Source: Spirochaetia bacterium
GTDB lineage: Bacteria; Spirochaetota; Spirochaetia; UBA9216
DNA: 24,000 nucleotides
Assembly: GCA_963677925.2 (NCBI GenBank)
Contig: CAXXYH010000003.1
Coordinates: 876,621-900,620, forward strand
Direction of reading: 5' to 3'
A program made the position numbers and the translations under genes. Shown here in pieces: positions 17,521 through 23,901 of this stretch. The notes under the pieces were generated by a model that made no database searches, was not told the DNA's origin, and saw only the letters and a list, made by a program, of their open reading frames with translations. Position 1 is the stretch's first letter; every line of letters begins with the position of its first letter.

Positions 17521-18477
17521 TCAGGGATACTGAAAAACACCAAGATTCTCCCTGGCTGCTGTCCATGCGGCAGGGATGTCTTTTCCGAGGCTGTAAAGGC
17601 TGACAATGGATCCTACAATGGCACAGGTGGTGTCCCTGTCTCCCAATCCTGCGACGGTATTCCATAAAGCTTCGGCATAGTCATCATAAAACCTCTCAAC
17701 TATCCAGAGACAGAAGGGCACAGTATCTACAGCAAGGATATTCTGCCCTGTACCGAGAATACCGGCAGCATCGTATGCAGTGGTTGTGCCGGGCAGGTTT
17801 CCGGCCTTCTCCACCTCATCTTTGAGCGTTCCGGCGGCAAGATATCTGATGACATATTCAAAAAGCCCCGGAACTTCATTGCGCCTGGTCTTCTGAACAA
17901 CCCAGGAAGCTGCAAGTGCAACAGCTGCAGCGCCCTCCTGCCCTTCGGAGTGCATATGGGTTACCTGAGCGGAGAGCCTTGCCTCTGCAGCTGCTTTTTC
18001 CGGATTATCCCAGAAATATGCGCCGACCGGACCGACCCTCATTGCAGAACCGTTCCCGCATGAGCCCTGACCGTCAAAAGCTGCGGCGGAGAGGGTTTTC
18101 CAGTCAGAATCGTACATATAGTTGCCAAGCATGGCGTGAATACCTCTTCCGTAGCCTCTGGCCGGATCCTTCCTGTATTGCACAAGAAACTGCTTTGCCA
18201 GAAAGTCCCGGTCGATACGCGTGCGGGAAATCAGTGTTTTTACTATAGATATTCCCATCACAGTATCATCTGTACACTTCCAGGGCGGATCAGGCAGAAT
18301 GCGTGAGTCAATTTTAGGAATAACTTCATCGTGATACCCGAAAAATTGTTCACCGAATGCATCTCCGACAGAAAGCCCCTGCAGGCTGATATCCGCAAGC
18401 TGTACACGTTCTGTTTTATCTTTAATTTCTAGCAATTTGTGACCACCTGAAATCCTTCTTCCTTGCTGGTCTCCCAT
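17521..18477 (-). CDS. ADP-ribosylglycohydrolase (ARH/DraG) family protein, copy 1
   Basis: ARH motif series GLSVGDAFGE, CTDDTVMG, GSCGNGSAMRVGP, THMHSEG and GLGDRDTTCAIVGSI. The ATG at 18477 overlaps the upstream Nudix gene by 49 nt. An alternative TTG at 18435 is preceded by AGGTGG at a 7-nt spacing and overlaps by only 7 nt. Confidence 0.85.
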   Translation of the reverse strand: MGDQQGRRISGGHKLLEIKDKTERVQLADISLQGLSVGDAFGEQFFGYHDEVIPKIDSRILPDPPWKCTDDTVMGISIVKTLISRTRIDRDFLAKQFLVQYRKDPARGYGRGIHAMLGNYMYDSDWKTLSAAAFDGQGSCGNGSAMRVGPVGAYFWDNPEKAAAEARLSAQVTHMHSEGQEGAAAVALAASWVVQKTRRNEVPGLFEYVIRYLAAGTLKDEVEKAGNLPGTTTAYDAAGILGTGQNILAVDTVPFCLWIVERFYDDYAEALWNTVAGLGDRDTTCAIVGSIVSLYSLGKDIPAAWTAARENLGVFQYP

Positions 18478-19121
18478 GTCTCATAATCGAAGCGATAGAA
18501 TCTTGCCGCCCTGTGGGAAACATCCTGTTCAAAGCGTTCAAGCGGAATCAGCATTCCTGTCTTGTGAAGCTTCTTCTGAAAATTCCTGCGGTCAAGTGCT
18601 GTCCCGAGTATCAGTTCATATAGATGCTGGACCTGCCTTAGGGTAAACTCTTCCGGAAGAAATTCAAATACAAGAGGCCAACGCTTTACTTTCTGCTGAA
18701 GTTTTGAAAGAGCATCTGTGAGGATCTGTCCGTGATCAAAAGCAGTTCGTGGAAGTTGAGAGACAGGAAACCAGGCTGCCTCACTTGCATCAGTATCAGC
18801 CTTCACATCATGGTCGAAAAGATTGACGATTGCGAAGTAAGCAATAGTGATCACCCGTTCTCTGGGGTCTCTACCGGGTTTGCCGTATGAACCGAACTCT
18901 TCAAGGTAGATGTTTTCAACACCGGTCTCTTCGCGCAGCTCTCTTTTGGCGGCATCAGGGATATCCTCATCAATACCGACAAATCCTCCGGGGATTGCCC
19001 AGCTGTCTTTAAAAGGTTCAAGCAGCCTTTTTATCAGCAGAACCTTAAGTTCATTATTATCAAGTCCAAAAACCACGCAGTCTACTGTAACTGCCGGATG
19101 CGGGTATTTATACTGGTACAT
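18429..19121 (-). CDS. NrtR-like regulator: Nudix hydrolase domain fused to a C-terminal winged-helix DNA-binding domain
   Basis: From the ATG at 19121: MYQYKYPHPAVTVDCVVF. Complete Nudix box GFVGIDEDIPDAAKRELREETGV (GX5EX7REUXEEXGU). C-terminal FTLRQVQHLYELILGTALDRRNFQKKLHKTGML resembles the NrtR wHTH region. The ATG lies 11 nt upstream of the preceding gene's stop codon (14-nt overlap). The track start at 19220 would add 33 aa and a 113-nt overlap. Confidence 0.8.
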   Translation of the reverse strand: MYQYKYPHPAVTVDCVVFGLDNNELKVLLIKRLLEPFKDSWAIPGGFVGIDEDIPDAAKRELREETGVENIYLEEFGSYGKPGRDPRERVITIAYFAIVNLFDHDVKADTDASEAAWFPVSQLPRTAFDHGQILTDALSKLQQKVKRWPLVFEFLPEEFTLRQVQHLYELILGTALDRRNFQKKLHKTGMLIPLERFEQDVSHRAARFYRFDYETWETSKEEGFQVVTNC

Positions 19122-20607
19122 CTGTAATCCTGTCCTTCCGGCAGATTTGGTTTCTGCCGTTTTCCTTAGCGCATCTAGTACGTTCGCTTGTTCTCTGAAT
19201 AAAGTCGATAAGCTGATCATCCTTATGCGATAACTCCGCTACACCGACACTGAGGGTTATTGTAAAACGGCTTCCGTCGTAGGCATTAATCTGTGCCTCG
19301 CCCGCATTTATCCATATACGCTCGGCGACCTCATATGCTTCATCCTCATTTGTATCAGGCAGTACAACACACATTTCTTCCCCGCCGTATCTGGCAACCC
19401 AGTCCACTGTACGAACAGAGCCCTTAATTACTTCAGCCACATGCTGGAGAGCCCGGTCACCGGTCGGCCATCCGTAGGTCTTGTTGACCTGACCGAAGAA
19501 ATCTATATCAACAAAGATAAGTGATAGAGGATGTTTGTATTCCCTGGCCCTGTCAAACTCACGCTTCATCCTGCGGTTGAAATATCCGCGGTCAAAGAGA
19601 GCTGTCAGTCCGTCGGTATCCGCCTGCTGCGCCATACTGCTAACGAACTTCCGGCTGCTGGATGATAGCGCCGCAGTAAGCCTGTCTGTAAGAACTTTAA
19701 CCCTGTTTTCAAAGTATTTTATCATCACATCCGCCGGGTCTGATTCAGGATTATCGGTTCCGCCGGCAACTTCCACCCTGTTGCGTCCTGCACCCTTTGC
19801 CATGTACAGGGCGCTGTCAGCCTCGTTGAACATCTCCTCACTGTCCATAGGTGTATCGGCAACACAGATTCCAATACTGATTGAAACAGAAAAATCACCT
19901 TTAATTTCAACTCCGGAGACTAAATCCTTAATATCAATCTGCTCAACCTCTCTACGGATAAAATCAGCAGCTCCTGCAGCCTGCTGTCTGTTCATTCTGC
20001 TTACAACCGCAAATTCATCACCGCCCATGCGGCAGATCCCGTTTTCACCGGTCATGCAGTTCCGGAGAATACCAGCAATTCTTCGAAGCAGCCTGTCTCC
20101 GTTTTGAAAACCGAAGGTGTCATTGATTATTTTAAAATTATCTATATCCATCATCATAAGTGAAACAGGTTTCTCAGATTCATTCATAAACAGTTCGAAC
20201 CTTAGACGTCTTGAAATTTCACTCCGTGGAAGAAGTCCGGTTAACGGATCTGTAAGCGACATTTTTAGCGACCGCTGTCTTGCATGAGTGTTTATACAGA
20301 ATCTTACCAGATGAAGTGTAAAGTTTTCGTCAAAGGATGAGGAAAGTACAACACTGTCTTCCGGCAGCAGTTTCCGCAGCCATACTGACTCAAGCTCATC
20401 AGGAACAATTACAAGTGACGGGATCGACATTTTTCGGTAGAAATCCTGAGCATCGCAGTATTTGTCCCATCTGCGGGCGTCGAAGATTCTGACATCCGCT
20501 CCTGCCGGAACCTGAGTAAATCTGTAATTGATCTTCTGAAAACTCACCTGTTTTACAGGAAATTTCGTATCGCCTTCCCAGATTATTTTATAGCTGAAAG
20601 TTTTCAA
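19108..20607 (-). CDS. Tandem-GGDEF diguanylate cyclase with an N-terminal receiver-like domain of unknown type
   Basis: 499 aa. Domain 1: LTDPLTGLLPR, MDIDNFKIINDTFG, RMGGDEFAV. Domain 2: DGLTALFDRGYF, VDIDFFGQVNKTYG, RTVDWVARYGGEEMCV (GGEEM with RxxD five residues upstream). TTG start at 20607, preceded by AAGGAG at a 6-nt spacing. Confidence 0.9.
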   Translation of the reverse strand: MKTFSYKIIWEGDTKFPVKQVSFQKINYRFTQVPAGADVRIFDARRWDKYCDAQDFYRKMSIPSLVIVPDELESVWLRKLLPEDSVVLSSSFDENFTLHLVRFCINTHARQRSLKMSLTDPLTGLLPRSEISRRLRFELFMNESEKPVSLMMMDIDNFKIINDTFGFQNGDRLLRRIAGILRNCMTGENGICRMGGDEFAVVSRMNRQQAAGAADFIRREVEQIDIKDLVSGVEIKGDFSVSISIGICVADTPMDSEEMFNEADSALYMAKGAGRNRVEVAGGTDNPESDPADVMIKYFENRVKVLTDRLTAALSSSSRKFVSSMAQQADTDGLTALFDRGYFNRRMKREFDRAREYKHPLSLIFVDIDFFGQVNKTYGWPTGDRALQHVAEVIKGSVRTVDWVARYGGEEMCVVLPDTNEDEAYEVAERIWINAGEAQINAYDGSRFTITLSVGVAELSHKDDQLIDFIQRTSERTRCAKENGRNQICRKDRITDVPV

Positions 20608-20644: not shown

Positions 20645-20667
20645 CTTAGTGTGTTATTTACACTTAG
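20645..20667. promoter_or_regulatory. Inverted repeat CTTAGTGT-N7-ACACTTAG; candidate NrtR-type operator in front of the GGDEF/NrtR-like/ARH/phosphatase genes
   Basis: 8-bp arms with one mismatch and a 7-nt spacer (gttattt), giving a GT-N7-AC core. Lies 38-60 nt upstream of the TTG start at 20607, in the only sizeable (110 bp) intergenic gap of the cluster. No T-tract follows on the minus strand, so it does not look like a terminator. Confidence 0.35.
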
Positions 20668-20717
20668 ATAAGTTTATACCTGAATAGGTTTTTTTTCAAA
20701 TAAAATATGCGGTTTTT

Positions 20718-21809
20718 TCACAATTCAGGAAGCTCATCATAGACGCCCCCTTCAAGTGAACCTGTCGTAAAATTATACCGCTCCACAGAACGCATATCTT
20801 CATGCAGGGGCAGGTTTTCTATCTTACGGATTTTTTCTCTAATACTCTGTCTGAACGCTGTTACAGCCTTCCATGTATGAGGAACAGAAGGGCATTTTCT
20901 GATAACCTCCGGAAGATGGGAACGTTCTGCTACTTTCACAATATCAAAGGCAAAAAGAAATCCCATAACCGGCCAGAAGGCAAACTTATCTTTGGATTTA
21001 AATTTACGGTTCAGATATACAGGAACTTCTTCATTTCCGTAATATCCTTCAATTCCTCCCAGAATAAATCCTGCAACCGTGGATCTGAACGTCTGCTTAT
21101 CATAGATATACTCAATGCAGTTTTTATAAAAAATAAAGGAAGCTGCAGAATTATCAAGACCCAGAGAGCCCAGATATCCGCCGATCCGCTGCAGTTCACT
21201 TACTGCGCGAAGCGCGGATGCGTCAGAAACATCGTTGAATCTGTCAGCCCCCAGTCCGACTGTGAAAAGGAGTTTAGGTATATCACAGGACAGCAGTGAT
21301 ATAGCAGTGACCGATACAAGATCCTCGATAACGTCTCCAAGACCGGCTTCATCTCCGGTCATAAGAGAGTCGGAACCTCCATCAACTGCAATAATACAGT
21401 CGACAGAATGCTTCTCACATAAATATTCATACAGTCTTTTCAGTTTTCCGACGTTAAAGTCTCTGGCATAATAGGCGTAAACGGAGTGCAAGGTCTCAGG
21501 GTAGACAGCATCAAGATATCTGCATACATTTATCTCGGGAGCATAATGAGGATCCGGGGTAATTGAGCCTGTACAGAGTTTGATTTGAATGTCATTTATC
21601 CCTGGAATATTCAGCATTTCACAATTGATCTTATCAGTTAGACCGAATGAATAGCTTCCTATCACAACATTCTTGTTCAGCTCCATCAGCGCAGGATAAA
21701 GCAGCATCCCGTGAATGAAATCAAACCCCCCGCCGCATCCCACAAGCAGAACATTTTTTATCTCAGGATTTCTTAGTATCTCAAGAAATTTCGGTTCTAA
21801 AAGGTTCAA
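20718..21809 (-). CDS. Uncharacterised protein with a Gly-rich Rossmann-like N-terminus; resembles the DUF1152 family (tentative)
   Basis: 363 aa. NVLLVGCGGGFDFIHG near the N-terminus and IIAVDGGSDSLMTGDEAGLGDVIEDL mid-protein. The family assignment is from memory of these motifs. TTG start at 21809, with an in-frame TAA two codons upstream and AAGGAG 11 nt upstream. Confidence 0.5.
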   Translation of the reverse strand: MNLLEPKFLEILRNPEIKNVLLVGCGGGFDFIHGMLLYPALMELNKNVVIGSYSFGLTDKINCEMLNIPGINDIQIKLCTGSITPDPHYAPEINVCRYLDAVYPETLHSVYAYYARDFNVGKLKRLYEYLCEKHSVDCIIAVDGGSDSLMTGDEAGLGDVIEDLVSVTAISLLSCDIPKLLFTVGLGADRFNDVSDASALRAVSELQRIGGYLGSLGLDNSAASFIFYKNCIEYIYDKQTFRSTVAGFILGGIEGYYGNEEVPVYLNRKFKSKDKFAFWPVMGFLFAFDIVKVAERSHLPEVIRKCPSVPHTWKAVTAFRQSIREKIRKIENLPLHEDMRSVERYNFTTGSLEGGVYDELPEL

Positions 21810-21829
21810 AGCTTATAGTTCTCCTTTCA

Positions 21830-22897
21830 TTATAATTCCTTCATGGCCCTGACAATGGGAAGTTTATCAATATTTTTAAATAACACTTTATCATTCTCCT
21901 CAAGAAGAGCCCACGGGAAAGTTTCATCCTTCATATCAAGAAAATCCTGTTTGACATCTTCACCGCTGCGGGCCCGTATAAAGTAATCAATTAATCTTTC
22001 AATGTAATCATGGTTTTCAATCACTGATAAAAGCCTTTCCGGAATGCTTTCTATTCCCAGATAAGCGCCGCTCAGGGCACAGGCCATGGATGAAATTGTA
22101 TCGGTATCACCGCCTGCGCTGACTGCTTCATAAAGGCAGTCCTCAAAAGAATCCCTGTTCCTTAAGAAGGTAAGAATAGAAAAAGGAAGCGATTCAACTG
22201 CCGTCTCATCCCGAAGAAAGGAGTTCATGCATCCGTCCGAATCAACCCCCTTATTCAATAGTATCCTGTTTTTTTCCAAAGCTTCTCTGAACCCTCCGGT
22301 TGAAGAAACTTTAAGCAGTTCAGCTATAAAATCATCGTTACTGATTTTATCAGCATCTAAAGCAAGCGCTGCAGCCTTTGCCATAATTACAGCTGAATCA
22401 ACGCCCAGCGGATGGATGTGGGTTGTTCGGGCTGATTTTACCGCATTCTTTTTTATAAGCCGGGGTCTGTTGCTGAACCACAGTCCGATTGGAGCAACCC
22501 GCATACAGGCGCCGTTCCCCATAGAACCGCTGCTGTTTTTGTATAAAAGCTCGCTGACAAAGCGGTTCAGCTTCTTTGAGGACACACCCGCTGTATCCTT
22601 TCGGATATTGAAAAGGAAATAGGTACCGGTACCGTATGCCCGATCGAGATTTGCAAGATGATCATACATAAAGATATCGGCCAGCTGCTCAAGTCTGATT
22701 CTTCCATGTATAATAAGCTGCTGACAAACTCCGAAGGTCATCAAAGAATCGTCTGTGTAGCGTATTACCTCGGACTTTTGGAGTTCGGTTTCAATCTCAG
22801 CTTTGTCCCCTGCGCCGAAATTCTCACCGATTGCGTCACCGATGACGGCACCAAAGAGGCATCCTCTGATTTTTTTATTAAGTTCTTTATCAGTCAT
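21830..22897 (-). CDS. ADP-ribosylglycohydrolase (ARH/DraG) family protein, copy 2, with a C-terminal extension
   Basis: GAVIGDAIGE, YTDDSLMT, GSMGNGACMRVAPIG, THIHPLG and SAGGDTDTISSMACALSGAYLG, then about 60 extra C-terminal residues. The ATG overlaps the upstream HDAC-family stop (ATGA). Confidence 0.85.
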   Translation of the reverse strand: MTDKELNKKIRGCLFGAVIGDAIGENFGAGDKAEIETELQKSEVIRYTDDSLMTFGVCQQLIIHGRIRLEQLADIFMYDHLANLDRAYGTGTYFLFNIRKDTAGVSSKKLNRFVSELLYKNSSGSMGNGACMRVAPIGLWFSNRPRLIKKNAVKSARTTHIHPLGVDSAVIMAKAAALALDADKISNDDFIAELLKVSSTGGFREALEKNRILLNKGVDSDGCMNSFLRDETAVESLPFSILTFLRNRDSFEDCLYEAVSAGGDTDTISSMACALSGAYLGIESIPERLLSVIENHDYIERLIDYFIRARSGEDVKQDFLDMKDETFPWALLEENDKVLFKNIDKLPIVRAMKEL

Positions 22898-23901
22898 TTT
22901 ATGCTTCGAAACAGCTCGCTCATATGAGCCGCCGCGGAGTTCACAGTTACATCAAGCTCATATCCGCCTCCGGGCAGGGAAACAACCGGAGCATTGTATT
23001 TATTCGAAACTTCAATGACAGTCCTTGTCATCATAGCAAAATCCTCATACTCAAACTTGGTCACATACTTTCCGCAGTCAAGGGTATGTCCGTCATGTCC
23101 GTCGAAGACAAAGATCATATCCGGTGTGAACGGAAGCGTTTCAAGTTCTAATCGGAACTGTTCCATTACATTCTCAGCCCTGAAGACATCACCCTTCAGC
23201 CCGAGTTCATCATGGAAAAAATCATCGGTATAGTTTTCATCAAGAACCGGAATACTGCAGTGGCCGACAGAAGATGAATATACAGTAGTTCCGAGCTCGA
23301 TTGATTTAACCATACTCATGTACAGGTCGACTGCACTGTGAATATCTATGATGTAAACCGAACTGTCATTCTCAAATATTGTCTGGGTTCCGTCTCCATG
23401 ATGAAAATCCCAGTCAATGATTAGGATATTCCTGAATCCGGATTTCTGCGCATACCGTGCCGCGGCTGCCATGGAATTCAGCAGACAGTAGCCATGCCCC
23501 CTGGATGGAAATGCATGATGACTGGGCTGGGTAAAACAGTATGCCCTATCCAGGACTCCCCTTTTCATCAGATCGACTGCTGAATAAAGACCGCCAAGAC
23601 CGTATTCAAAGCCGGGAAGAGCCAGAGGCAGATTGAAGCATTCCGCACTTATAGTCAGATCAGCCTGTTCATCACCGCCTGCAAAGGCTTTGATTGCATC
23701 AAGATACTCTTTGCCATGAACCGACTTGAACTCATCAAACTCAACCCTGTTCAGAGGCAGTTCAGGTACCCTCAGTTCCTTTCTGATCCCTGCCCGGACC
23801 TTATCATAATAATCAAGCGACTGGCCAATGAATTCAATCTCGTTCATCGGCTTTATTGTCATACAGGTTTCAGGATGGAAATACGTTCCGAAAGTTTTCA
23901 T
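22894..23901 (-). CDS. Zn-dependent deacetylase of the histone deacetylase / acetylpolyamine amidohydrolase family
   Basis: 335 aa. PSHHAFPSRGHGYCLLNS (catalytic HH), IIDWDFHHGDGTQ (D-x-H metal ligands), FDGHDGHTLD and LPGGGYEL (catalytic Tyr). No clear SD. An AT-rich 99 bp stretch lies upstream, up to the window edge. Confidence 0.88.
   Translation of the reverse strand: MKTFGTYFHPETCMTIKPMNEIEFIGQSLDYYDKVRAGIRKELRVPELPLNRVEFDEFKSVHGKEYLDAIKAFAGGDEQADLTISAECFNLPLALPGFEYGLGGLYSAVDLMKRGVLDRAYCFTQPSHHAFPSRGHGYCLLNSMAAAARYAQKSGFRNILIIDWDFHHGDGTQTIFENDSSVYIIDIHSAVDLYMSMVKSIELGTTVYSSSVGHCSIPVLDENYTDDFFHDELGLKGDVFRAENVMEQFRLELETLPFTPDMIFVFDGHDGHTLDCGKYVTKFEYEDFAMMTRTVIEVSNKYNAPVVSLPGGGYELDVTVNSAAAHMSELFRSIK

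Follow-up and report, generated by a model that had tools for sequence, protein, structure and literature searches.

The window, that is, the whole 24-kb stretch of DNA that was analysed, encodes an HDAC-type deacetylase and two ADP-ribosylglycohydrolases (ARH1 and ARH2) in the gene order HDAC-ARH1-DUF1152, followed by tandem GGDEF-NrtR-ARH2-DUSP-like Cys phosphatase. The following features were recognised:

22894-23901, minus strand: HDAC-type open reading frame, 335 aa, Pfam PF00850 (Hist_deacetyl)
22894-22897, minus strand: ATGA stop/start overlap of the HDAC TGA and the ARH1 ATG ('tcat' on the plus strand)
21830-22897, minus strand: ARH1 open reading frame, ARH3-like, 355 aa, Pfam PF03747 (ADP_ribosyl_GH)
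21821-21825, minus strand: Shine-Dalgarno-like AGGAG ('ctcct' on the plus strand), 11 nt 5' of the DUF1152 TTG start
20718-21809, minus strand: DUF1152 protein, 363 aa, Pfam PF06626
20699-20671, minus strand: promoter-like -35/-10 from a consensus scan, DUF1152/GGDEF intergenic region
20649-20663, minus strand: GTGT-N7-ACAC palindrome from a palindrome search, candidate NrtR operator, DUF1152/GGDEF intergenic region
19108-20607, minus strand: tandem-GGDEF protein with the signatures GGDEF and GGEEM, Pfam GGDEF over two stretches (2.3e-74)
18429-19220, minus strand: NrtR-type Nudix plus winged-helix regulator, Pfam NrtR_WHD (1.7e-23) and NUDIX (3e-21)
17521-18477, minus strand: ARH2, a second ARH3-like ADP-ribosylglycohydrolase, 318 aa, Pfam PF03747 (2.9e-49, 169 bits)
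16946-17665, minus strand: DUSP-like Cys phosphatase with the CX5R motif HCWRGISRS, from a weak Pfam DSPc match and a family alignment

Direct reading of the sequence confirmed the ATGA that the first-pass annotation had placed at 22894-22897: the HDAC TGA stop and the ARH1 ATG start, both encoded on the minus strand, have 4 nt in common. Overlaps of this size between stop and start are frequent among operon genes, so that the overlap alone indicates co-expression of HDAC and ARH1 and not a shared function. Hence, the coupled expression proposed at first pass holds, and the overlap by itself is insufficient for the shared substrate or pathway proposed along with it. With the motifs described below, HDAC and ARH1 are predicted to be co-transcribed, translationally coupled hydrolases whose catalytic residues are intact. 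The gap between ARH1 and DUF1152 is 20 nt and includes the Shine-Dalgarno-like AGGAG, and DUF1152 is probably the third member of an HDAC-ARH1-DUF1152 unit. Upstream of HDAC, the window extends for just 99 nt.

The deacetylase matched Pfam PF00850 over residues 45-329 (151.3 bits, E=4.8e-44, cut-off 27.9). The catalytic His pair H128-H129, D163/D165/H167 in DWDFHHGDG and D270 in FDGHDGH with the Zn ligands D165/H167/D270, and G311-G313/Y314 with the GGGY tyrosine were invariant in an alignment of 33 clade sequences, bearing out the earlier reading that the HH pair, the metal ligands and the tyrosine are all kept. The same alignment contained clade-specific invariant residues, e.g., Y7, GHGYC..N142, HS..D192-Y194-M195 and G213-H214..P218. 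Scores were at least 130 bits within the clade versus at most 102 bits against other HDACs, and among 1.84 billion representatives, a profile search recovered just two full-length 50% clusters of the clade. These comparisons place HDAC in a compact, uncharacterised clade of proteins of ~335 aa. Viral contigs scanned with the clade-specific patterns yielded no member of it, and the PLSDB plasmids contained distant HDACs only (~32% identity) and no clade member.

The best PDB matches of HDAC were the HDAC6 catalytic domains CD1/CD2, then HDAC10 and HdaH; chains labelled as HdaH or 'acetoin utilization protein' ranked below the HDAC6 domains, and APAH was absent among the best 60 PDB matches. The NCBIfam scan of HDAC gave no model match, and Pfam scans found no acu genes in the 24-kb window. 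The NCBIfam result, the PDB ranking and the clade bit scores set HDAC apart from AcuC and the acetylpolyamine amidohydrolases; the clustering with acetylpolyamine or acetoin enzymes that had been raised as a counter-argument at first pass was not seen, HDAC6-type enzymes being the closest. The 'AcuC-like' labels of JGI are generic. HDAC shares its fold, with the paired His residues, the Zn site of Asp/His/Asp and the tyrosine of GGGY, with the HDAC6/HDAC10-type class IIb enzymes and the bacterial HdaH-type deacylases, whereas it belongs to a separate compact clade without a characterised member. According to a term search, Graf et al. 2024 (PMC11532494), on bacterial classical deacylases, contains no discussion of an ADP-ribose gene context for the clade.

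ARH1 matched Pfam PF03747 with 159 bits (E=2.5e-46), and its motifs GDAIG(E) 20-25, T48-D49-D50, G127-N128-G129..M132-R133 and GGDTDT 262-267 were invariant in 34 homologues, in agreement with the GDAxG, TDD, GNGxxMR and GGDTDT listed at first pass. Human ARH3 was the best solved match of ARH1 (E=7e-26), and ARH3 was also the best PDB match of ARH2 (E=3e-20). The whole ARH fold of human ARH3 (ADPRHL2) aligns with both proteins, which keep the TDD and GGD(T/R)DT metal-binding motifs, whereas the acidic residue after GDAxG is at +1 (GDAIGE25) in the window ARH as against the E41 position in ARH3. The scores against the DraG equivalog (64.8 bits, NCBIfam cut-off 337) and the Tri1 equivalog (37 bits, NCBIfam cut-off 490) indicate that the ARH is neither DraG nor Tri1. 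Unlike ARH3, ARH1 has a low-confidence C-terminal tail of ~45 aa. The extra region seen at first pass therefore exists, but its size of ~60 aa was an overestimate according to the alignment, in which homologues of 305-318 aa align up to ~residue 310. The tail is confined to the ARH1 lineage and was found in three sequences only, namely ARH1, P0122 (90% identity) and P0123 (45%); the AF2 model of ARH1 has one extra helix (316-326) and then a low-confidence tail (331-355, pLDDT 46-56), and as modelled the tail forms no separate globular domain. A conservation of the pair centred on ARH1 was considered and dropped, because the closest tail-bearing homologue, P0123, is without HDAC in its neighbourhood and P0124 likewise has another gene context.

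The first-pass annotation described an isolated pair and overlooked the genes just downstream, i.e., those for the NrtR regulator, ARH2, the Cys phosphatase and DUF1152; with these, the pair appears as an accessory of a locus responsive to ADP-ribose and no longer as isolated. The DUF1152 family is highly conserved and widespread; neither ARH nor HDAC was found in its neighbourhoods elsewhere, which ruled it out as a conserved partner. No PDB fold significantly matched the AF2 model of DUF1152 (pLDDT 84.5); SurE and LmbE-type deacetylases came closest, with E about 0.02 and TM about 0.3. NrtR is of a repressor family that responds to ADP-ribose; it has its probable true start at 19121 and would then comprise 230 aa, as does the orthologue in the close relative L081; the Nudix box GX5EX7REUXEEXGU could be read intact from its sequence, and it matched NCBIfam NtrR with 3.5e-47, under the equivalog cut-off. 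The NrtR open reading frame overlaps ARH2, and that of the phosphatase overlaps the ARH2 stop. The phosphatase probably starts at 17503 (~185 aa), and its family profile matches DUSP10 (5.5e-7). The -35/-10 and the palindrome at 20649-20699 are a candidate start and NrtR operator of a second unit. Neither the 99 nt that the window offers upstream of HDAC nor the upstream region of L081 contained an NrtR-like operator; since the sole GT-N7-AC-type palindrome lies 5' of the GGDEF-NrtR unit, the HDAC unit may escape NrtR control. A pncB gene was noticed ~5 kb from the locus.

The HDAC-ARH1 pair was exactly conserved only in L081, a 95%-identical relative, so that the adjacency, whose conservation outside this genome had been left open at first pass, is kept at that identity and not beyond. 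DUF1152 occupies the same position in L081 and the tandem-GGDEF gene is syntenic. On the other hand, L081 has neither ARH2 nor the bulk of the phosphatase gene (window 17104-18432), although the flanking DNA is ~93% identical; a remnant of the 3' end of the phosphatase gene is retained. Pfam scans of all major ORFs found no ART, Sir2 or GNAT in the 24-kb window. The earlier statement that no writer is nearby is thus correct within the window, but the window stops 99 nt 5' of HDAC, and L081 contains a GNAT acetyltransferase ~2.8 kb upstream, in another transcription unit. No ART or Sir2 was found within a further 10 kb of L081, and neither ART nor sirtuin adjoins the clade HDACs examined.

Genes for ARH, Macro or DUSP-like phosphatase were found nearby in nine of the 64 clade loci versus one of the 76 control HDAC loci (Fisher p=0.0056, small numbers), and the density of ARH genes was ~14-fold higher around clade HDACs than around the controls; the ARH-only comparison was borderline (p=0.047), likewise with small numbers. 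The controls were the non-clade HDAC loci of the same scan plus later additions, 76 in all, and only 12 of the 80 loci in the contig scan were clade members because the generic DxHHGDGTQ pattern dominated. Among the ten loci whose HDAC is at least 53% identical to that of the window, six carry such partners, HAD and DSPc phosphatases included. ARH genes were found beside the clade HDAC at L081, L124/L016, L096 and L118 (at L118 as an ARH-MavL-macrodomain fusion), and Macro genes at L084 and L082, at the latter with a stop/start overlap. The Macro of L082 weakly resembles the O-acetyl-ADP-ribose deacetylases of the MacroD type and also the macro-domain protein from yeast in PDB 1njr. L087 has ARH and Nudix genes 2.5 kb from the clade HDAC, the Nudix being plain and without a winged-helix domain, and L089 has HAD and DSPc genes beside it. 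Calcineurin-like phosphoesterases (Metallophos) occur beside the clade HDACs of L083, L096, L118 and L102, and the DUSP-like family of the window is also present at L118, L083 and L096, with no occurrence in the control loci. At the other clade loci examined, no NrtR was found near HDAC.

The partner ARHs split in the alignment into two clades (GDAIGE vs GDIIGS..YE), which indicates that the HDAC-ARH linkage arose more than once; partners from at least four families with one biochemical theme, together with these two ARH clades, imply repeated independent recruitment. These data support a non-random linkage of the HDAC clade to ADP-ribose-processing genes in several independent lineages. In ~85% of the clade loci, the neighbours are unrelated and very diverse, including histidine kinases, methyltransferases and sugar enzymes, and several loci, e.g., L086 and L082, lie in mobile or toxin-antitoxin-rich settings. 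No fusion of HDAC with ARH or Macro turned up in the profile search of the 1.84 billion representatives or in a word-indexed search; the long matches were HDAC6-like multidomain proteins. The mostly unrelated neighbours and the lack of fusions indicate that HDAC-ARH is not an obligate two-gene module. With regard to the co-occurrence and fusions suggested as evidence at first pass, the linkage is thus enriched over controls, but the exact pair is confined to L081, ~85% of the loci are without it, and the databases searched contained no fusion. PADLOC gave no meaningful match for HDAC, ARH1, ARH2, DUF1152 or the phosphatase. Our literature search found nothing linking HDAC-type enzymes to ARH or Macro operons, and nothing on DUF1152.

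ARG-centric writer-less ADP-ribosylation-reversal systems are a prediction of Iyer, Burroughs, Anantharaman and Aravind 2022 (Viruses 14:1977, section 3.8; PMC9503650), which extends to protection against phage or toxin ADP-ribosylation and is not experimentally established. Their template combines an ARG with Nudix-HTH and a rhodanese/PTP-superfamily phosphatase, without ART or sirtuin, in actinobacteria, planctomycetes and proteobacteria. The GGDEF-NrtR-ARH2-phosphatase half of the window locus fits these systems: the ARG has no ART or sirtuin neighbour, NrtR (NUDIX and NrtR_WHD) corresponds to their Nudix-HTH or WYL one-component regulator, and the DUSP-like CX5R protein corresponds to their tightly coupled phosphatase (rhodanese/PTP, calcineurin-like, HD or HAD). 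At the clade loci L096, L118, L083 and L089, DUSP-like, Metallophos and HAD genes represent this phosphatase, and the loci with Macro match the versions that have an extra Macro. Modules gained and lost between close relatives are also seen between the window and L081, where the absence of ARH2 and most of the phosphatase gene fits the accretion-and-loss hallmark of these systems. Peptide-binding chaperones (vWA, SseB, TY-Chap), REase and ARPP were not recognised in the window by a Pfam scan that was without TY-Chap and ARPP models; several small ORFs of the related clade loci had no Pfam match.

In contrast, the HDAC-type deacetylase, DUF1152 and the tandem-GGDEF protein do not figure among the components that Iyer et al. 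name in their main text (PMC9503650), and the HDAC-clade loci belong to different taxa, i.e., cyanobacteria, Chloroflexi, a spirochaete, Desulfobacterales and Bacteroidales. The occurrence of HDAC in such an ADP-ribose-removal locus suggests a new variant relative to the predicted ARG-centric systems. DraT-DraG, DarT-DarG, SirTM-Macro and Tre1-Tri1 likewise place an ADP-ribose eraser in a small operon; however, they have an ART or sirtuin writer, whereas the window and the clade HDAC loci examined are without one. Moreover, unlike in the Macro/ARH-sirtuin or ART-coupled systems, the eraser in the window is partnered by a Zn deacetylase in place of an enzyme that depends on NAD.

Zn deacetylases and ADP-ribosylhydrolases are usually studied as separate eraser systems, and the usual link between acetylation and ADP-ribose is through the NAD-dependent sirtuins. 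As the best, still tentative explanation of our data, the HDAC clade is possibly a facultative second eraser recruited to ADP-ribose-removal systems, for which we infer the following co-regulation, substrates and shared-target logic. The ARHs, and the Macro domains in other genomes, would cleave ADP-ribose from modified macromolecules; the released ADP-ribose would lift NrtR repression and would be processed by the phosphatases and the Nudix domain. The Zn deacetylase would take an acyl group, probably acetyl, off these same targets or off co-modified ones, and the outcome would be a reset of proteins modified by an enzyme encoded elsewhere, whether of phage, toxin or endogenous origin. Speaking against this account are the unrelated neighbours of ~85% of the clade loci, the restriction of the exact pair to L081, the lack of HDAC near P0123, the absent fusions, the missing PADLOC match, the lack of clade members on viral contigs and plasmids, the missing operator candidate 5' of HDAC, the small numbers behind the statistics, and the absence of HDAC from the components named by Iyer et al. 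The dual-eraser idea of the first-pass annotation is in this sense partly supported.

Alternatively, HDAC could be a deacetylase of general use, acting on proteins or small molecules and mostly alone, its coupling to ARH1 being a lineage-specific accident and the other ARH and Macro neighbours belonging to variable islands. Such an account, which we consider rather unlikely, agrees with the heterogeneous neighbours and the lack of ADP-ribose genes in most clade loci, with the mobile or toxin-antitoxin-rich settings of several of them, with the restriction of the exact pair to 95% identity, with the absent fusions, and with DUF1152 and ARH1-like genes being unlinked to HDAC elsewhere. The enrichment over the control loci and the 14-fold ARH density speak against it, as do the four or more partner families, the two ARH clades, the stop/start overlaps with ARH in the window and with Macro at L082, and the DUSP-like family, which is present in clade loci and in none of the 76 controls. 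A third account, in which HDAC deacetylates NrtR, a regulator whose DNA binding is under the control of lysine acetylation in mycobacteria, or another locus-encoded protein and thereby tunes NAD/ADP-ribose homeostasis, is highly improbable. NrtR is encoded three genes downstream of HDAC and separated from it by ARH1, DUF1152 and the GGDEF gene, pncB is close by, and a control of NAD homeostasis through NrtR acetylation has been reported (Gao et al. 2019 eLife, as cited in PMC9503650). However, NrtR was not found at any other clade locus examined, and the Nudix of L087 is without a winged-helix domain. The deacetylase of NrtR, moreover, is reportedly a sirtuin.

A small-molecule pathway likewise appears unlikely. 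In it, the pair, joined in other genomes by partners of the Macro, Nudix and phosphatase kinds, would break down an acetylated metabolite of the ADP-ribose type, e.g., O-acetyl-ADP-ribose, or a related compound derived from NAD; the products would be acetate and ADP-ribose, and then AMP and ribose-5-phosphate, feeding NAD salvage under NrtR control. ARH1 and ARH2 are both ARH3-like, and O-acetyl-ADP-ribose is a reported substrate for hydrolysis by ARH3 (Ono et al. 2006, as cited in PMC9503650). The MacroD-type similarity at L082, the intact Nudix box of NrtR with pncB in the vicinity and the abundant phosphoesterase partners, which suit nucleotide catabolism, point in the same direction. Nevertheless, no sirtuin or other producer of O-acetyl-ADP-ribose was found nearby. 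To our knowledge, the characterised enzymes of the HDAC fold are amidases acting on N-acyl amines and none is a sugar esterase; the nearest sequence relatives of HDAC, i.e., HDAC6 and HDAC10, are protein and polyamine deacetylases, and a Zn enzyme would be redundant, since Macro and ARH3 enzymes already hydrolyse the ester. From phyletic patterns, it has also been argued that ARG domains prefer macromolecular adducts (Iyer et al., PMC9503650).

Beyond the facultative second eraser that we favour, the HDAC clade might be dedicated to ADP-ribose-centred reversal, either erasing a second mark, an acyl group, that enzymes of phages or toxins attach along with ADP-ribose, in a dual-modification immune 'reset', or hydrolysing an acylated ADP-ribose conjugate beyond the reach of Macro and ARH; this stronger reading is doubtful at present. 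If true, it would be the first functional link between the classical NAD-independent deacetylases and bacterial ADP-ribosylation signalling. An HDAC clade that repeatedly travels with ARH, Macro and ADP-ribose-processing phosphatases would point to substrates of a new class for the HDAC fold or to a joint system that strips several modifications, and HDAC offers a concrete, testable accessory for the predicted ARG-centric anti-ADP-ribosylation systems. Given the small size of the clade and its lack of characterised members, a single biochemical study could assign its function.

The HDAC-type deacetylase gene and ARH1, the ARH3-like ADP-ribosylglycohydrolase gene coupled to it, are followed on the minus strand by DUF1152, a tandem-GGDEF gene, an NrtR-type regulator, a second ARH gene (ARH2) and a small DUSP-like phosphatase gene.

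Features of the HDAC-ARH1 locus in the window
22894-23901 (-): HDAC-type gene, 335 aa (Pfam Hist_deacetyl, E=4.8e-44)
22894-22897 (-): ATGA overlap of HDAC TGA stop and ARH1 ATG start
21830-22897 (-): ARH1, 355 aa (Pfam ADP_ribosyl_GH, E=2.5e-46)
20718-21809 (-): DUF1152 gene, 20-nt gap after ARH1, AGGAG 11 nt before TTG start
20649-20699 (-): promoter-like -35/-10, then GTGT-N7-ACAC palindrome, inside the 110-nt intergenic DUF1152/GGDEF spacer
19108-20607 (-): tandem-GGDEF protein, two GGDEF domains (signature motifs GGDEF and GGEEM)
18429-19220 (-): NrtR-type Nudix and winged-helix regulator, likely start 19121, Nudix box intact
17521-18477 (-): ARH2, ARH3-like
16946-17665 (-): ORF of small Cys phosphatase (DUSP-like), likely start 17503, HCWRGISRS (CX5R)

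Both open reading frames of the pair are real and lie on the minus strand. The plus strand reads 'tcat' at 22894-22897, so the HDAC TGA overlaps the ARH1 ATG on the coding strand, confirming the shared ATGA reported in the first-pass annotation. All the motifs reported there were also recovered, each at invariant alignment columns: H128/H129, D163/D165/H167, D270 and G311-313/Y314 in the HDAC, and G20-D21..G24-E25, T48-D49-D50, G127-N128-G129..M132-R133 and D264/D266/T267 in ARH1. The two genes are thus co-oriented and overlapping, with catalytic residues intact in both. The extra C-terminal region of ARH1 exists, but extends ~45 aa beyond the end of the 305-318-aa homologues instead of the ~60 aa first estimated, and is common to just two other proteins, P0122 (90% identity) and P0123 (45%). 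The AF2 model (mean pLDDT 84.7) is of high confidence to ~residue 320, with pLDDT 96 for residues 311-320, 78 for 321-330 and ~46-56 for 331-355, and predicts no additional globular domain in the tail. P0123, the closest full-length homologue of ARH1, and the next, P0124, are encoded in unrelated contexts, and ARH1 is not a conserved partner of the HDAC. DUF1152 was likewise rejected as a conserved partner, because its neighbourhoods elsewhere are without ARH and HDAC. The DUF1152 family is strongly conserved (~50% identical across many phyla, with Asp, Glu, Cys and His residues invariant at many positions); its confident AF2 model (pLDDT 84.5) is alpha/beta with parallel strands and matched no PDB entry significantly, and our literature search found no paper mentioning the family.

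Immediately downstream of HDAC-ARH1-DUF1152 lie genes for a regulator of the ADP-ribose-sensor type, another ARH and a Cys phosphatase, neighbours that were overlooked when the pair was taken as isolated. Based on the promoter-like site and palindrome in the spacer, and on the lack of terminator-like sites in the gaps between locus genes, we read two units, HDAC-ARH1-DUF1152 and GGDEF-NrtR-ARH2-phosphatase. The palindrome resembles the GT-N7-AC core reported for NrtR operators and, lying ahead of GGDEF-NrtR, is a candidate site of autoregulation. The Nudix box GFVGIDEDIPDAAKRELREETGV (residues ~78-100) is a complete match to GX5EX7REUXEEXGU, so NrtR may retain ADP-ribose pyrophosphatase activity besides sensing. 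The tandem-GGDEF gene separates the HDAC-ARH1-DUF1152 unit from NrtR. Its product has an unassigned ~100-aa N-terminal region ahead of the two domains, and the last ~14 nt of the gene overlap the beginning of NrtR as placed by the probable start (19121); this position and overlap suggest a possible c-di-GMP output of the ADP-ribose-sensing unit. As first stated, no cognate writer is nearby: ART, sirtuin and GNAT genes are all absent from the 24 kb window, which on the upstream side extends only 99 nt past the HDAC. The corresponding locus of a close relative, L081 (HDAC 95% identical), carries a GNAT gene ~2.8 kb upstream, in another unit. The NAD-salvage gene pncB (nicotinate phosphoribosyltransferase) lies ~5 kb beyond the phosphatase gene, tightly packed with serS and a NeuB-like gene (10552-14361, +); base 11826 is common to the serS stop and the pncB start, and 32 nt are shared by pncB and NeuB, unusual operon company for an NAD-salvage gene near an NrtR.

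In section 3.8 of Iyer et al. 2022 (PMC9503650), 'ARG-centric' systems (ARG being the ARH family) were predicted, the template of which, as set out there, comprises (i) an ARH/ARG gene without a coupled ART or sirtuin; (ii) a Nudix-HTH (NrtR-like) or WYL repressor; and (iii) a tightly coupled phosphatase, in most cases from the rhodanese/PTP superfamily but alternatively calcineurin-like, HD or HAD. Such systems may also include Macro or NADAR domains, as well as chaperones and effectors, and close relatives differ by module gain and loss. The authors propose that ADP-ribose put on host macromolecules by phage enzymes is removed, and that the operon is induced by the ADP-ribose set free. NrtR, ARH2 and the phosphatase, the ORFs of which form an overlapping string (16946-19220, -), fit this template, itself a prediction, point by point. 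DNA alignment with L081 (17104-18432 of the window against 15469-15628 of L081) revealed that L081 lacks ARH2 together with roughly two-thirds of the phosphatase gene. It retains a phosphatase 3′ remnant, and its flanking DNA is ~93% identical to the window. The remnant indicates a recent deletion of the ARH2-phosphatase module, which is the accretion-and-loss behaviour predicted for ARG-centric systems. The component families are all known, and the ARH/NrtR/phosphatase half belongs to a predicted kind of system; an HDAC-type deacetylase is absent from the components in the main text of PMC9503650.

The HDAC homologues form a compact clade of ~335-aa proteins from cyanobacteria, Chloroflexi, Marispirochaeta, Desulfobacterales and Bacteroidales, scoring at least 130 bits with each other in phmmer versus at most 102 bits with every other HDAC sampled. 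When 1.84 billion representatives were searched with a profile, the clade comprised only two full-length 50% clusters and fragments, and the next matches were HDAC6-like multidomain proteins and ~315-aa bacterial proteins. Among solved structures, the HDAC6 catalytic domains come closest, ahead of HDAC10, HdaH and others. None of the NCBIfam models matched the HDAC, which places the clade outside AcuC and APAH, and the acetoin-utilisation or acetylpolyamine assignment that could have undone the first-pass reading is not supported.

Conservation was assessed in 64 non-redundant clade loci from three sources: scanning of genomes, scanning of metagenomes with a trimmed alignment specific to the clade, and look-ups of exact proteins. 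The full HDAC-ARH1-DUF1152-GGDEF-NrtR synteny recurs only in L081, and the 57 likely operonic immediate neighbours (45 loci) show no dominant partner family, including histidine kinases, methyltransferases, sugar enzymes and others. The ADP-ribose/phosphatase theme nevertheless recurs in a minority of loci.

Clade loci with ADP-ribose-processing or phosphatase neighbours
L082: Macro gene directly upstream of HDAC, overlapping
L084: Macro gene directly upstream of HDAC
L124, L016 (syntenic, cyanobacterial): ARH 15-69 nt downstream
L096: operon of ARH-DUF6717, Metallophos, orf, HDAC, phosphatase remnant, ARH and phosphatase; third ARH nearby
L118: Metallophos, DUSP-like, HDAC, ARH-MavL-macrodomain fusion
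L087: ARH and Nudix 2.5 kb downstream
L089: HAD and DSPc directly downstream
L083: Metallophos upstream, two DUSP-like copies downstream

ARH, Macro or DUSP-like genes were present in 9/64 clade loci versus 1/76 control loci with non-clade HDACs (Fisher p=0.0056), and ARH gene density was ~14-fold higher in the clade loci. Among the ten loci with an HDAC at least 53% identical to the window's, six had ADP-ribose-hydrolase/phosphatase partners, counting the HAD and DSPc of L089. The partner ARHs fall into two clades, GDAIGE (ARH1-like) and a short GDIIGS..YE type, so the linkage arose more than once. Statistically, clade HDACs are linked non-randomly, in multiple lineages, to ADP-ribose-processing genes. 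L096, L118, L083 and L089 resemble additional variants of the ARG-centric kind of system. The DUSP-like family (~185 aa, CX5R motif HCWRGISRS or HCHAGVHRS), seen weakly by Pfam as DSPc, was found beyond the window (16946-17503, -) only in clade loci L118 (4186-4779), L083 (6559-7119, 9360-9587) and L096 (9773-10333, 8426-8749) and in 0/76 control loci; it may be a more specific HDAC partner than ARH.

The idea of a paired eraser module holds in part, as a real thematic link, but the pair is neither obligate nor widely conserved as two genes. We tentatively favour, at slightly less than an even chance, a role for the HDAC as a facultative second eraser that joins ADP-ribose-removal systems lacking a writer. 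Its substrate would be an acyl-amide (acetyl-lysine in the simplest case), carried by the same or by co-modified targets; ARH or Macro enzymes would set ADP-ribose free, on which the phosphatases and the Nudix domain would act and which NrtR would sense. The absence of the theme from most clade loci speaks for a rival reading, in which the neighbours are functionally unrelated genes in variable islands; we consider this rather unlikely given the non-random linkage.

Processing of acetylated ADP-ribose-type metabolites would suit both the NAD-salvage context and the resemblance of partners to ARH3 and MacroD, but no sirtuin is present and the chemistry of the HDAC fold is that of an amidase, making this small-molecule route improbable. 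Deacetylation of NrtR itself has a precedent in the acetylation of NrtR documented in mycobacteria, but NrtR was seen in no other examined clade locus, and we give this very little credence. The second-eraser reading draws on small-number genomic statistics, and the substrate or role of the HDAC, possibly a new one for this fold, is offered as a testable lead.

No fusion of HDAC with ARH or Macro, as sought after the first-pass annotation, came up in the profile search of the 1.84 billion representatives or in a word-indexed search; no clade copies were found on phage contigs or plasmids, and PADLOC gave no matches for the HDAC, ARH1, ARH2, DUF1152 or the phosphatase. A term search of Graf et al. 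2024 (PMC11532494), the principal overview of classical deacylases in bacteria, returned no discussion of ADP-ribose context, and the association was not found described in the main texts of openly accessible papers. What appears new is the recognition of a compact HDAC clade without a characterised member, and its recurrent yet facultative association with ADP-ribose-processing genes.

Several other architectures were observed. L118 (6386-8341) encodes a 651-aa protein in which ARH is fused to a macrodomain of the MavL type (Pfam MavL, E=2.9e-109), 522 nt downstream of the clade HDAC. ARH1-clade ARH domains with a fused C-terminal DUF6717 (563 aa) occur in L096 (4070-5761), as the first gene of the operon with the Metallophos gene and clade HDAC, and in protein P0211. 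On a Bacteroidales contig (L085, 7003-7890), a gene for a SLATT-domain membrane protein, a family linked to conflict systems, lies 3 nt downstream of the clade HDAC. Elsewhere in the window, a eukaryote-type hexokinase gene (Pfam Hexokinase_1 and Hexokinase_2; 1258-2532, -), to our knowledge uncommon in bacteria, adjoins a LacI-family regulator.
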